Shown: positions 56,765 through 61,927 of the stretch, in pieces
How positions within the stretch are numbered: the stretch's first letter is position 1
Layout of the letters: each line of letters opens with the position of its first letter
Assembly (NCBI GenBank): GCA_015660995.1
Contig: JACTUC010000002.1
Coordinates: forward strand, 43,480 to 107,479
Origin: Candidatus Methanomethylicaceae archaeon
GTDB lineage: Archaea; Thermoproteota; Methanomethylicia; Methanomethylicales; Methanomethylicaceae
Direction: 5' to 3'
Length of the DNA stretch: 64,000 bases
The notes under the pieces: model-generated
The model's database searches: none
What the model was told of the DNA's origin: nothing
What the model saw: the letters and a program-made list of their open reading frames with translations, nothing else
Program-made: the position numbers and the translations under genes

Positions 56765-56980
56765 GATTATTGAGATTAGCATGATAAATTTAACCTTATC
56801 GGCACTTCAATCTATTGGGAAGACAATATTATTTCGGACTAAAATACAATTTGTCGGATAGTCGTCATACGACTTTTTGCGAGGTAAAAACAAGCCAAGT
56901 CGCCAGAACCAGATTTCGGGTTCTGTGTAGTCTTCGTTTGTTTTGCCCTATTGTGTAAAATCGGTTGGTCAAAATAGAAA

Positions 56981-57448
56981 CTAATCGCCCAAATAAATTA
57001 GTTCAACCCTGCGTTTGCTTAGATATACCTCAAATTTGCTTAATATATCCATGCCTAATACACAAGGAGTGTGTCTCAACATTATCTCTCTATTTTTTGG
57101 CTCTAAATTTTCGGGAGGGCATATTACACTAAAACCACTATTATGATTTATTTTAAGTTCATCATTGTTTGAACTAAATGTAAGAGTTACGAGGTAATTG
57201 AGTGTTTTGTGCTTAAATAATCCACCAAATCCTATAGAAATATCCTTAGCAAAAGGCAAAGTACCACAATCGATACCAGCCAGTGTTGCCTCCATTTCTG
57301 TAATTAATGAAACTTTGGAACCAGTATCCACCAAAAAACGAACAATTTTGCTTACGCCATATGCAGGAACTTCAAATAAAACAGGAATTATAGGCTGCCC
57401 ACAAACATTTATCCCTTTAAATACACGGCTTGAGGGCAACGCAAACAC
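56981..57448 (-). CDS. Retropepsin-like (clan AA) aspartic protease
   Basis: FLVDTGS catalytic motif, GFGG flap, C-terminal LGMDIL. Confidence 0.85.
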   Translation of the reverse strand: MFALPSSRVFKGINVCGQPIIPVLFEVPAYGVSKIVRFLVDTGSKVSLITEMEATLAGIDCGTLPFAKDISIGFGGLFKHKTLNYLVTLTFSSNNDELKINHNSGFSVICPPENLEPKNREIMLRHTPCVLGMDILSKFEVYLSKRRVELIYLGD

Positions 57449-57454
57449 GAGTTC

Positions 57455-57709
57455 CTAAAAAAACATTGCAATTTCTTCTGCTTGCATATATTTCATTAGT
57501 ATACTATTTGGATCATATCTTCTAGCAAAAGATAACGCTTCTTCTGACGTATCCTCGCTTTTAATGACTTTCTGTTTGTGTATGATAATCCATTTATTGT
57601 TGTATTCTTTCACTAGCCGATCATAATTGTCATTAAGAAATTGCAGGTTTTTTATTGAATCTACGAATAGACTTTTTGACAACAATTTTACACCTCTATC
57701 GAGATTCAC
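57455..57709 (-). CDS. DUF5678-like small protein
   Basis: N-x-x-FL-x-x-NY-x-x-L-x-x-x-Y-x-x-KW-x-x-I-x-x-x-x-VI pattern; 6 bp upstream of the protease. Confidence 0.65.
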   Translation of the reverse strand: MNLDRGVKLLSKSLFVDSIKNLQFLNDNYDRLVKEYNNKWIIIHKQKVIKSEDTSEEALSFARRYDPNSILMKYMQAEEIAMFF

Positions 57710-57854
57710 TATATCTCTTATCTTGTATTATAAGAGGGAAAGGCTGTATATATCAATAATCTTTTAAGCTTTTTGATGCGGATAAATCAGCGACTAAGCA
57801 AAGTCATTAATCTGGTTCATTCAACTTGTCGTCGGATATGCTTCATTGTAAATT

Positions 57855-58259
57855 TTCGTCGGATTATGTTGGTTATTTCTTGAAATAGGCTTATTATTTG
57901 TAAAGACACAAGTAAATTGGAGGTTGATTTCTTGTCTCAAGGTGAAGAATCATCCTTGCCTTCCACGTCCAAGCCAACAGCCTCAATAAAGGAGGAACTG
58001 AATACTCATTCAACTGGATTTTTTACAATCGCTTTTTTACTTTCTTTTTTATGGTTTAAATTCAATTCGACTCCTATTTTTCCCCTTGGACTTGTTGGAG
58101 GAGTAATCATTATCGTTTGGATATCGGATATCGATTTAGAGCTTGGAAAGCATACGGACAATAGAGGACCCTTCGTGTTATGTATTCTAGCCACTATCTT
58201 GGGCTTTTTCATTAACTCGATGTAACTGGTCATTTCGTAATTAGGTTCGTCGGATTATG
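57855..58259 (+). repeat. 14-bp direct repeat TTCGTCGGATTATG at 57855-57868 and 58246-58259
   Basis: Exact copies; degenerate copies at 57829-57840 and 56851-56860. Confidence 0.8.
57917..58225 (+). CDS. Small multi-TM membrane protein
   Basis: Three hydrophobic segments; TTG start uncertain; bracketed by 14-bp direct repeats. Confidence 0.5.
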   Translation: MEVDFLSQGEESSLPSTSKPTASIKEELNTHSTGFFTIAFLLSFLWFKFNSTPIFPLGLVGGVIIIVWISDIDLELGKHTDNRGPFVLCILATILGFFINSM

Positions 58260-58286
58260 CCAGGGTTGACCATGCCAGAGTTCCGA

Positions 58287-58685
58287 CTATTCTTCAGTGT
58301 TCATTGCTTGTTGTTTGATGACTGAGGCTTTGTTCGGATTAGCATAGTACAAGAATGATTTTTTGCTACCAGTTCTTTCAATGATCCCCATTCTAATGAA
58401 TTCTCTTAAAAGAACAGGGTAGATGGAACTTGTGCGAAAGGTAAACCCTTTCTTTGCCAACTCTTTCCGTATTTCAGTTAAAGTCCTTTTATCATCAAAC
58501 CAACCATTAATAATCAATTCATTAAGTAGCATCTTAACGGTTTTTAGACCTTTCCGCTTCTTACTTTGCCCAATACCTAACCCAACTAGAATATTTTGAA
58601 CAGCTTCTTGCGAGCCATCTATTTCAACCATGCCAAATTTAGTGGGTATTCTGGCCGTAATGTTTTGACTCTCGTTTTCAACCAT
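58287..58685 (-). CDS. Winged-HTH protein with N-terminal beta domain
   Basis: GMVEIDGS N-terminus; GWFDDKRTLTEIRKEL...IYPVL...IER...YY C-terminus; ATG overlaps the protease stop. Confidence 0.7.
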   Translation of the reverse strand: MVENESQNITARIPTKFGMVEIDGSQEAVQNILVGLGIGQSKKRKGLKTVKMLLNELIINGWFDDKRTLTEIRKELAKKGFTFRTSSIYPVLLREFIRMGIIERTGSKKSFLYYANPNKASVIKQQAMNTEE

Positions 58686-60891: not shown

Positions 60892-60892
60892 A

Positions 60893-60985
60893 CTTATCTA
60901 CCTACTAATACATATATACAAATGCCTATATAAATCTATCTGGCAATCAAGAGATATATTTATATGATACTCATAGGTAGATAAG
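60893..60985. promoter_or_regulatory. 12-bp perfect inverted repeats framing the divergent transposase/AbrB promoter
   Basis: CTTATCTACCTA (60893-60904) and TAGGTAGATAAG (60974-60985), with TATA-like boxes between. Confidence 0.7.
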
Positions 60986-61003
60986 AGGTAGAGGTATCAA
61001 AAA

Positions 61004-61180
61004 ATGAGCTTAGCGAGTAAAGTGAGCATAGCAAGACCTGGCACGCTCTCTCTTAGAGCGACTGTTCCCGAAGGGATCGTGGCCTTTCTTGACATACATG
61101 AAGGCGATAAACTTGAGTGGAAAATGGAAATCATTGATGGTGAGCGGGTAGCTCTTGTAAGAAGGAAAAAACAGGTGTAA
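61004..61180 (+). CDS. AbrB/MazE/SpoVT-family protein, 58 aa (not in ORF track)
   Basis: MSLASKVSIARPGTLSLRATVPEGIVAFLDIHEGDKLEWKMEIIDGERVALVRRKKQV. Confidence 0.85.
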   Translation: MSLASKVSIARPGTLSLRATVPEGIVAFLDIHEGDKLEWKMEIIDGERVALVRRKKQV

Positions 61181-61182
61181 TT

Positions 61183-61620
61183 ATGGAGCTAACCGATCAG
61201 AATAAAAAAATCATAGCCGAAGCAGAAGAATTCGTGAGAAGACTTGATGATGGTCTTCAGATTGTCAGTCCTAGAGCCCGCAATCTAGAAAGATGGTACA
61301 AAGAACCAAATAAACTATCGGAAAAGATTGCAGATATTTTATATGAAAATAAAAAACGATTCCGATATAGCACTGGCGAAACGGAACGGTATAACATTGC
61401 TAAAAATCTTCTTGAAGTCAGAGATGTATTACAAACTCATGGATATCTCGAAAATGGCGACGCATCAATAGAAGAGAATAGATTGCTAAGAGAAGAGAAC
61501 TCTAAACTTAAGGAAGAAGTCAAATCATTGAAAGAAGAAATAAAACAATTAGATGAAGAATTAGCACATCAAAAAATTGGCTCATACTTTGTGGAAGGGG
61601 ATGTCGGGAAACATGAATAA
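61183..61620 (+). CDS. Hypothetical protein with C-terminal coiled coil
   Basis: Heptad-rich ENRLLREENSKLKEEVKSLKEEIKQL; 2 bp after the AbrB stop. Confidence 0.65.
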   Translation: MELTDQNKKIIAEAEEFVRRLDDGLQIVSPRARNLERWYKEPNKLSEKIADILYENKKRFRYSTGETERYNIAKNLLEVRDVLQTHGYLENGDASIEENRLLREENSKLKEEVKSLKEEIKQLDEELAHQKIGSYFVEGDVGKHE

Positions 61621-61927
61621 CCTTGTTCAATGCTCCCGATGTCGTAGTGTTTTGATAGCCGAGGAATTTGAGTCACACAAATGTAAAGTCCCCATAAAGA
61701 AGCACATTGAAATTATTGCGGGCTTAATTCTTGACCTCACCACATATGAGGAAAAGACTCTGCTTGTGGATGGTCTTAATGGAGTTAGTTATATGATTAA
61801 ACTAAAGACAAAGGGGGAAGCTCTTCCGTGGCCACCAAACGAAAATACACGGGATAATAACCAAACGGGAACTACACAGAACCAGATTTCGCAAGCTTTA
61901 ATTATCTCCCTTGTCGCTTCTTTATAA
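61613..61927 (+). CDS. C2HC zinc-finger hypothetical protein; reads through the right TIR
   Basis: CSRC...H-x-C; start moved to ATG 61613 overlapping the upstream stop; stop lies outside the element. Confidence 0.6.
   Translation: MNNLVQCSRCRSVLIAEEFESHKCKVPIKKHIEIIAGLILDLTTYEEKTLLVDGLNGVSYMIKLKTKGEALPWPPNENTRDNNQTGTTQNQISQALIISLVASL

Follow-up and report, generated by a model that had tools for sequence, protein, structure and literature searches.

Introduction

Members of the IS6 (IS26) family are textbook simple insertion sequences (ISs), whose cargo is moved only as pseudo-compound structures. Published surveys of the family list elements of 0.7–1.76 kb, with ISDsp3 and its one passenger gene as the sole passenger-carrying member, and confine zinc-finger extensions to clostridial clades (h/i, also called VII/VIII) (PMC6807381, PMC7986276); the end motif is defined as GG + cTGTt + caaa (PMC7986276), and a survey of thaumarchaeal mobile elements treats ISs as units of one or two genes (PMC6563490). 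Here we describe an element of 4,965 bp in a 64,000-nucleotide stretch of DNA from a Candidatus Methanomethylicaceae archaeon (assembly GCA_015660995.1, contig JACTUC010000002.1, positions 43,480 to 107,479; hereafter the window, to which all coordinates refer), which is a real, recently mobile transposon and an autonomous member of an archaeal lineage of IS6-like unit transposons. Taken jointly, the identity of the element, its mobility, the architecture of its family and a rule of insertion at promoter edges are, in our judgement, likely to hold.

Boundaries and mobility of the element

Sequence inspection placed the element at positions 56919–61883. The end motif GGTTCTGTGTAGT has two exact matches in the 64 kb, at 56919(+) and 61883(-), and comparison of the two ends showed identity at 13/13, then 19/22, then 23/28 positions. 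Both ends are flanked by the 8-bp repeat AGATTTCG (Table 1), with the perfect direct repeat extending to 15 nt (CAGAACCAGATTTCG) rather than 8 because the left flank holds the 7-nt tip of an older family end. One intact DDE transposase open reading frame (ORF) lies inside the element and no flanking IS copies were present in the ORF list or profile searches, while G+C content was 33–39% in the cargo and approximately 45% in the transposase gene versus 50–57% in the flanks. The original prediction, a model's reading of the letters and an ORF list, had described a 5-kb unit transposon with terminal inverted repeats (TIRs), an exact 8-bp duplication, an internal transposase and AT-rich cargo, and all of these were seen again in the sequence.

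The window junction was present in approximately 20 peat and wetland metagenome runs, in four of which the occupied allele was contiguous with both flanks and the element had the same depth as the flanks. In two independent runs (X20 and X14), position 56902 is joined straight to 61876 on contigs that include 203 nt of left flank, so that 4,973 bp (4,965 + 8) are skipped, and these empty-site contigs had depths of 8.5 and 11.5 compared with 3–5 for the element in the same runs. One of these empty-site contigs (L122), found via the identical transcription factor B (TFB) protein, reads GCCAAGTTGACAGAACC, AGATTTCG and CAAGCTTTAATTATC in succession (in short form, TTGACAGAACC, AGATTTCG, CAAGC), with a single AGATTTCG. 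As metagenome contigs hold the precise empty site, the insertion is polymorphic, and because the empty and occupied alleles differ by exactly 4,965 bp plus one 8-bp copy, the multi-gene unit between the one pair of ends arrived whole, in one event; the duplication and the empty site demonstrate 8-bp staggered strand transfer. The element is single-copy in its genome, since its depth equals that of the flanks and an exact-protein look-up recorded the identical transposase at the window locus only (22 contigs). Both the recent activity suggested in the original prediction and the single AGATTTCG that it proposed to look for at the junction in sequences without the element were found in these contigs.

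Two other accounts of these boundaries were weighed. The stretch could be a site-specific island at tRNA-Gln, with the 15-bp repeat as att, a tyrosine or serine recombinase encoded elsewhere and the DDE gene as a secondary passenger; the 15-nt perfect direct repeat, the tRNA-Gln gene 146 bp away and the sharp A/T-rich island all speak for this. However, an integrase or recombinase gene was absent in or near the element (ORF list, profile searches), 7 of the 15 nt of the repeat are the relic end tip and differ in the empty allele (TGACAGAACC versus CGCCAGAACC), so that the repeat is not conserved there, and a close relative occupies the same 8 bp in the opposite orientation. Moreover, the ends are inverted repeats of the family, whose 31 delimited relatives share the architecture with unrelated 8-bp duplications and have no tRNA nearby. 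For practical purposes the island is already refuted. Alternatively, the 5-kb unit might be a frozen composite of nested or decayed insertions, whose outer ends are partners by coincidence and of which no more than a shorter core ever moved. An internal relic end at 57814, relic motifs at 57855 and 58246, the G+C difference between the transposase gene (45%) and the cargo (35%) and the occurrence of the same cargo block on a different transposase and accessory module in another metagenome (X19) would all fit such a composite; against it, the empty allele differs by exactly the whole element plus one 8-bp copy, and the outer ends share their specificity whereas the internal relic has another, which together make the composite very improbable.

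Table 1. Coordinates of the element, its genes and its flanking features in the window.
Feature	Positions	Strand	Remarks
Relic terminal site of an older member	56887–56910	-	Abuts left duplication copy (end, 8 bp, end); PWM 13.8 bits
Left target-site duplication copy, AGATTTCG	56911–56918		Single copy in empty-site contigs
Transposase-distal end (IRR)	56919–56969	+	Terminal site 56919–56942, subterminal site 56951–56969 (TTGTGTAAAATCGGTTGGT); PWM 27–28 bits
Cargo: retropepsin-like aspartic protease, 155 aa	56981–57448	-	DTG motif; gag-asp_proteas 1.2e-4 and TIGR02281 0.005, both under cut-offs
Cargo: DUF5678 protein, 84 aa	57455–57709	-	6 nt upstream of protease gene; PF18929 28.7 bits, cut-off 23.2
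Internal relic end, other sub-lineage (CGTCGGAT-type)	57814–57864	+	Terminal and subterminal sites; PWM 18.7–18.9 bits
Cargo: predicted membrane protein, 102 aa	57917–58225	+	From ORF list; zero family matches
Cargo: winged helix-turn-helix-like protein, 135 aa	58287–58694	-	Weak Penicillinase_R match, E 0.009
Cargo: mini-metzincin, 158 aa	58678–59154	-	HEILHLNGVQH (HExxHxxGxxH); weak Peptidase_M54/archaemetzincin matches, zinc motif only
Cargo: protein of 141 aa (168 aa from GTG at 59247)	59328–59753	+	Called 141 or 166 aa in public contigs; zero family matches
Transposase, 370 aa	59779–60891	-	Pfam SWIM 23 bits, DDE_Tnp_IS240 58.6 bits; NCBIfam IS6 7e-36
Divergent control region	60892–61003		Perfect 12-nt inverted repeat and two A/T-rich boxes
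Accessory gene 1: AbrB/SpoVT-like regulator, 58 aa	61004–61180	+	Divergent from transposase; cluster 5, in 7 elements
Accessory gene 2: protein of 145 aa	61183–61620	+	C-terminal coiled coil; 120–180-aa gene at same position in most elements
Accessory gene 3: CxxC...HxC zinc-ribbon protein, ~104 aa	61613–61927	+	Cluster 9 (L002, L008, L062)
Transposase-proximal end (IRL)	61834–61883	-	Subterminal site 61834–61852, terminal site 61860–61883; PWM 20.5–22.4 bits
Right target-site duplication copy, AGATTTCG	61884–61891		Direct reading and repeat analysis
Target landmark	61892–61904	+	Spacer CAAGC (5 nt), then A/T-only octamer TTTAATTA; offset matches family peak
Host gene tfb (transcription factor B)	62006–63013	+	Transcribed away from element; TFIIB 6.8e-47, Zn_Ribbon_TF 2.5e-20; 335 aa in public contigs

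PWM, position weight matrix.

A lineage of cargo-carrying relatives

Among GTDB species genomes, 177 stretches encode relatives of the transposase, and the best 77 loci (51–71% identity), which were analysed, span Bathyarchaeia, Methanoperedens, Nitrososphaeria/Nitrosopumilales and Atabeyarchaeia. A large protein collection contained 5,076 related clusters at E≤1e-10, under generic names such as ‘transposase-like protein’ or ‘DDE-type integrase/transposase/recombinase’. Relatives were delimited via the inverted repeats around each homologue, taking G(G/A)nnCTG ends with a perfect 8-bp duplication, and 31 elements of 2,278–6,159 bp were obtained, each with an 8/8 matching duplication; the relatives, including one of 6,693 bp (L124), carry 4–10 ORFs. 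The left end lies at least 855 nt ahead of the transposase start codon in all 31 except L043 (395 nt) and the right end 54–2,860 nt past its stop codon, so that none of the 31 has TIRs tight around the gene, and the survey of SWIM-IS6 loci recommended in the original prediction revealed distant ends and variable cargo. Set beside the published IS6 sizes (PMC6807381, PMC7986276), these multi-gene relatives bear out its suggestion of a distinct archaeal, cargo-carrying class. A more distant subfamily (34% identity) has the same end type, 8-bp duplication and membership of arrays, with few cleanly delimited elements, and viral contigs held a single fragment of the family. Family elements were also observed on two short contigs binned under bacterial labels, Pirellulales (L002, which additionally holds an archaeal tfb gene) and Dehalococcoidia (L101), both of which are probably mis-binned archaeal DNA.

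The transposase is laid out as a SWIM finger, an IS1-type zinc ribbon, a helix-turn-helix (HTH) plus an IS6-type DDE core. Pfam SWIM matches residues 45–72, an IS1/IS1595 zinc-binding domain (NCBIfam) residues 92–126 and DDE_Tnp_IS240 residues 198–334, the last with 58.6 bits against a cut-off of 27, while the NCBIfam model NF033587 (‘IS6 family transposase’) matches over its full profile 1–202 (E 7e-36, 123.8 bits). The SWIM finger residues (C50, C52, C62, H64), the four cysteines of the zinc ribbon (C92, C95, C118, C121) and the DDE core (D202, D261, E301, R308) are invariant in 40 homologues. A PDB sequence search gave zero matches. These profile scores, the GG..CTGT..CAA tips and the 8-bp duplication agree with the IS6-like transposase and ends of the original prediction.

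The likeness to IS6/IS26 elements (IS26, IS257, IS240) resides in the HTH-DDE core, the GG + CTGT + CAA ends and the 8-bp duplication, and an N-terminal CxxC zinc finger is shared with the long clostridial clades of IS6. In contrast to the 0.7–1.76 kb and one gene of IS6 members, elements of this family are 2.3–6.7 kb with at least four genes, have an extra SWIM domain, two transposase-site repeats per end and a precise, promoter-linked target, and enclose their cargo within a single pair of ends, where IS6 members flank it with two IS copies in direct repeat. At 4,965 bp and with many genes, the window element falls outside the definition of a simple IS (0.7–0.9 kb, up to 1.76 kb, single ORF), and it is best filed with IS6 on its transposase core, GG..CTGT ends and 8-bp duplication.

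A position weight matrix (PWM) trained on 62–64 family ends was used to scan the window and 1.19 Mb of related loci. In the window it found four ends, the two outer ends, the internal relic at 57814 and the relic that abuts the left duplication copy. All 64 family ends have a bipartite layout, consisting of a terminal site, GGTTCTGTnAAGTnnnCGnnnGAT, and a subterminal copy 30–45 nt inward whose 3′ half co-varies with the terminal site, element by element; these paired repeats are presumed to be transposase-binding sites. The family end consensus is GGTTCTGTCAAGT, and both it and the window motif have the GG, cTGTt and caaa parts of the IS6 definition. The outer ends of the window element share the specificity CGTTTGG at terminal and subterminal sites, from which the internal relic (CGTCGGAT) differs; the relic motif that recurs at 57855 and 58246 is TTCGTCGGATTATG. 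The relic end beside the left duplication copy has a counterpart in the empty-site allele, where it reads GGTTCTGTCAACTTGG and scores 19.2 bits, and an orthologue in L124.

Insertion at the upstream edge of predicted promoters

Fifty-nine insertion sites were reconstructed, giving 90 flank views, and offsets 0–29 were scanned for the TATA pattern TTWAWAWD. A TATA-like octamer stood at offset 5 from the duplication in 30 of 90 flank views, versus 0–9 at other offsets, and in 14 of 72 (versus 0–9 elsewhere) once orthologous flanks had been collapsed. The 39 non-orthologous sites were 87–97% A/T across the box, with T at -3 in 32 and Y at +1 in 31 of them, two positions that were not used in choosing the view; in gene orientation the former reads as A, where the adenines of the B recognition element (BRE) sit. 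The flanking gene, the first long ORF on the box side, points away from the element and has its start codon 22–29 nt (the leaderless class) or 45–58 nt past the box (12 independent sites), giving a geometry of element tip, 8-bp duplication, 5 nt, TATA, approximately 23 nt and start.

The flanking genes encode TFB at four sites (the window, L002, L034/L049 and L068) and the thermosome at three (L004, L006 and L023), far more than chance would place among approximately 39 independent sites; others encode RadA (approximately 17 Nitrosopumilaceae loci in two orthologous groups), ribosomal P1, L7Ae, proteasome beta, a single-stranded DNA-binding protein (SSB)-like protein and a Lrp/AsnC-domain protein. 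The family is shown statistically, for promoters predicted from sequence, to insert at the upstream (BRE) edge of archaeal core promoters and to leave the promoter intact. Two earlier candidates were dropped: tRNA targeting, as a tRNA is near the element at few loci only, and disruption of the promoter by an insertion that separates its TATA box from the transcription start, as the gene served lies on the box side and points away. Literature searches on SWIM-IS6 elements or on TATA- or TFB-directed archaeal transposition found nothing relevant, and promoter-edge targeting by a prokaryotic transposon, which had no description in the literature searched, is new here, as are the bipartite co-varying ends, the 8-bp end pairs and the tandem arrays with one repeated 8-mer.

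Tandem arrays

Wherever, in the 1.19 Mb of related loci, a ‘-’ end was followed within 0–40 bp by a ‘+’ end, the gap was exactly 8 bp (32 of 32 cases), and 64 of 229 ends belong to such pairs. Arrays reach four elements of different sub-lineages with one 8-mer repeated at every junction (CAAAAGCA in L058, TTGAATAT in L029, CCCAAACA in L060 and TGTTTGAG in L055), and one array shows its 8-mer at up to seven ends. Full-length members occupy the promoter-proximal position and truncated relics the distal one in at least 13 arrays, with no counter-examples.

The abutments, and that of the window insertion with a relic end, could also mean that new arrivals aim at the tips of family ends already in place, much as IS30 and IS911 do at their own inverted repeats or as IS26 does beside a resident copy, with the promoter no landmark at all; abutting ends of different sub-lineages share only the tip GGTTCTGT. 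The spacing of abutted ends by the length of the target duplication is indeed a likeness to IS30/IS911, where the resident end is the target and the junctions are reactive intermediates. Here, however, elements that stand alone, with no other end beside them, have this TATA offset and promoter landmark too, the abutting ends come from different, often decayed elements, and the bias towards tfb, thermosome and radA genes would be left without a reason. Relics on the promoter-distal side are predicted by the promoter model and not by targeting of end tips, which we consider quite unlikely.

The radA promoter (..CCGTATGGTACGGTACGAGTAC CTAATAAA GATAT) is a hot spot across genera, at which approximately 17 Nitrosopumilaceae loci (L040–L067) hold from one to four different family elements together with relics. 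In a three-element array at L031 (23–7789), the middle element is flanked by CGATTAAA and, at its opposite end, by the reverse complement TTTAATCG; such an inverted duplication would be consistent with an inversion or with a replicative event within one molecule, and it is the only hint of replicative intramolecular events.

The tfb site as a natural experiment

Contigs that encode the identical 335-aa TFB present the site with at least four different occupants, or empty. The window element is present in L115–L118, L120, L121 and L123, and the empty state, with the relic only, in L122. A different element of 6,693 bp with AGATTTCG on both sides, a ribbon-helix-helix (RHH) regulator and ParB-like cargo occupies the site in L124 and L125; it has an internal relic end, and the orthologous relic lies beyond the element. 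Yet another end type is found in L119.

A strain 2–3% diverged (L088) carries a 96%-identical transposase at the same 8 bp in the opposite orientation, with an end nearly identical to the window IRL. Its accessory operon is non-homologous to that of the window, with an RHH regulator in place of AbrB, and the diverged strain also has the DUF5678/protease block of the window at approximately 98% identity; modules have therefore been shuffled between elements that meet at one site. Two readings of the X19 contigs were dropped. Relatives of ‘minimal IS’ form, read from a joint of 60892 with 61834, proved to be the element with a non-homologous accessory operon, and a CGTCGGAT-type end by the tfb flank, taken as another occupant, is more likely a better-preserved relic at an empty site. 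A further X19 joint, of 56937 with 59791, rests on a 24-nt side only.

Beyond the relic end, the tRNA-Gln(CTG) gene (56691–56764, minus strand) has its own BRE/TATA-like box, AAGGTTAAATTTATC, at 56783–56797, approximately 20 nt upstream of the mature 5′ end and within the A/T-rich 146-bp stretch that separates the gene from the relic.

Accessory operon and cargo

Clustering of ORFs across elements revealed a conserved layout 5′ of the transposase gene, consisting of a divergent regulator, a protein of 120–180 aa and a protein of 90–170 aa. The first has a weak MazE_antitoxin match in the window and is replaced at the same position by an RHH protein in other sub-lineages, the second gave coiled-coil noise only in Pfam and PADLOC, and proteins at the third position are of zinc-ribbon or helical type across the family. 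The original prediction had counted about nine passengers; six of these are variable cargo genes, while the other three (AbrB-like, coiled-coil and zinc-ribbon) form this conserved accessory operon. A 12-nt inverted repeat (TAGGTAGATAAG; 60893–60904 and 60974–60985) lies just before the start codons of the transposase and the AbrB-like protein and flanks A/T-rich boxes, and probably serves the small regulator as a pair of operators. In all family elements the third accessory ORF reads through the terminal repeat (61860–61927 in the window), its last residues (..RRLDRT, ..FTEP, ..QTGTTQN) being set by the end sequence and its stop codon falling in the flank, often within the TATA-like box.

Variable cargo is confined to the 3′ side, where it fills the interval from the transposase stop codon to the opposite end. 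The DUF5678/protease pair recurs in the L043 element (clusters 25 and 26, respectively) and in the X19 strain. Other elements carry an N6/N4 methyltransferase with a partner gene (L089), a methyltransferase-Mrr/REase fusion (L092) or a ParB_N protein (L124). Protease-based modules, which the original prediction took to be what the class ferries, are accordingly no family trait: only the DUF5678/aspartic-protease pair recurs, and other cargo is of methyltransferase/restriction or ParB-like type. The 135-aa and 141-aa cargo proteins have weak similarity to each other (23% identity), and PADLOC gave coiled-coil noise only for the cargo and accessory proteins.

The segment that encodes the membrane protein (57917–58229) has a copy of the relic motif TTCGTCGGATTATG on each side. 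The same metagenomes also contain a second version of the segment, with 13–16 differences; both borders are points where contigs break, and in one variant contig 58243 is followed by 20 other letters and then by end-like sequence at 56923. The family element at L089 (5762–9150), with the duplication ATAAATGG, a TATATATA box at offset 5 and the methyltransferase with its 295-aa partner, is embedded in DNA that also encodes two tyrosine integrases and a VirArc_Nuclease; this DNA may belong to a provirus or an integrated plasmid, which would offer a path for horizontal spread.

Proposed mechanism of insertion

On the insertion-site statistics, the predicted promoter and its gene stay intact and fire away from the inserted element, and the promoter-proximal copy of the 8-mer keeps its distance to the box. 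That copy would therefore remain a target, with later arrivals inserting between the promoter and the older element. Repeated arrivals would build arrays in which each junction repeats the same 8-mer and the oldest, decayed members lie at the greatest distance from the promoter; the window would be one such case, with its intact element next to tfb and an old relic end on the far side. The small regulator may repress the divergent promoters, and cargo and accessory modules may be exchanged through recombination and end decay within arrays. Promoter recognition might be mediated by the SWIM domain or by the accessory proteins. The geometry of the promoters and the bias towards certain genes lead us to favour a landmark that is read through the promoter complex bent by TATA-binding protein (TBP) and TFB, not from sequence alone, an idea to which we give somewhat less than even confidence.

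A landmark read directly from the DNA, as an A/T octamer with flanking bases or as a bend, would need neither TBP nor TFB, and the promoter link would then be one of sequence similarity. The target logo has content beyond the box (T at -3, Y at +1), the octamer at the window site, composed of A and T alone, probably does not mark the main tfb promoter, and many DDE transposases pick bent or A/T-rich DNA. On the other hand, the boxes show the sequence variation of real TATA boxes and stand at promoter-like distances from start codons, and the sites cluster at a few highly expressed housekeeping genes (TFB four and thermosome three times among approximately 39), a bias that sequence alone would not predict in genomes rich in A/T octamers. 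Direct reading of the DNA is less likely than not, yet a serious competitor of reading through TBP and TFB.

Several points weigh against promoter-edge insertion by an IS6-like lineage as set out here. The NCBIfam IS6 score is 1.2 bits under the equivalog cut-off of 125, and the AlphaFold2 model of the transposase (40 homologues; pLDDT 62, pTM 0.35) is too poor to use. TATA-like sequence is common in A/T-rich intergenic DNA, offsets 3, 4, 7 and 9 are mildly enriched too, the better of two flank views was taken for each site and approximately 17 sites are one orthologous radA promoter. The promoter assignments are themselves predictions, and TBP/TFB is a candidate reader whose link rests on sequence statistics. 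In the window, the octamer TTTAATTA (61897–61904) fits the TATA pattern at 6/8 positions only and the tfb start is 92–101 nt past it, not 45–58, with a better-placed box approximately 40 bp on, near 61941–61950; TTTAATTA may be other than the main tfb promoter box, and the window exemplifies the family target rule only loosely. Among the arrays, loci were chosen through full-length transposase matches, which biases the test of age order, and the inverted duplication at L031 is left unexplained by the model.

Comparison with other targeted elements and significance

The Ty3 (yeast) and TRE5-A (Dictyostelium) retrotransposons integrate at fixed positions by Pol III genes through TFIIIB (TBP and the TFIIB-related Brf1). 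They resemble the present family in a fixed distance from a TBP/TFIIB-type complex, which holds here on statistical evidence, in the safe haven of housekeeping genes and in repeated sites; they differ as eukaryotic retroelements with integrases whose factor contacts are experimental, whereas here a prokaryotic DDE transposon would be joined to TBP/TFB through the insertion-site statistics. Tn7 and Tn7-like elements at attTn7 are likewise unit transposons with variable, often defence-type cargo (PMC8649781). Shared with them, too, are a landmark-set site at a fixed distance from a bound protein and tandem stacking with the newest element next to the landmark. However, Tn7 employs TnsABC together with TnsD, TnsE or CRISPR guides, duplicates 5 bp of its target and uses a single attachment site per genome, in contrast to the single DDE protein, alone or with small helpers, the 8-bp duplication and the many promoter sites of this family.

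The lineage is very common in uncultured archaea, and a single pair of ends encloses both its accessory genes and its kilobases of cargo. Tentatively, and with less than even confidence, we suggest that it (>5,000 transposase clusters; Bathyarchaeia, Methanoperedens, Nitrososphaeria, Asgard and DPANN-type metagenome-assembled genomes, MAGs) docks on the TBP/TFB-bound promoter and inserts at the upstream edge of the BRE, as a counterpart of Ty3 and TRE5-A among prokaryotic DNA transposons. The target rule would improve the automated delimitation of mobile elements in archaeal MAGs. If it holds, the promoter rule would be a natural probe of TBP/TFB occupancy in unculturable organisms, would explain the hot spots and tandem arrays of mobile elements by radA, tfb and thermosome genes, and would offer a compact tool for archaea that puts DNA at a defined, promoter-proximal place. 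Docking on TBP/TFB, if true, would provide safe havens by essential genes and promoter-anchored arrays where modules recombine, and with them a means by which restriction-modification, ParB-like and protease-pair cargo may spread.

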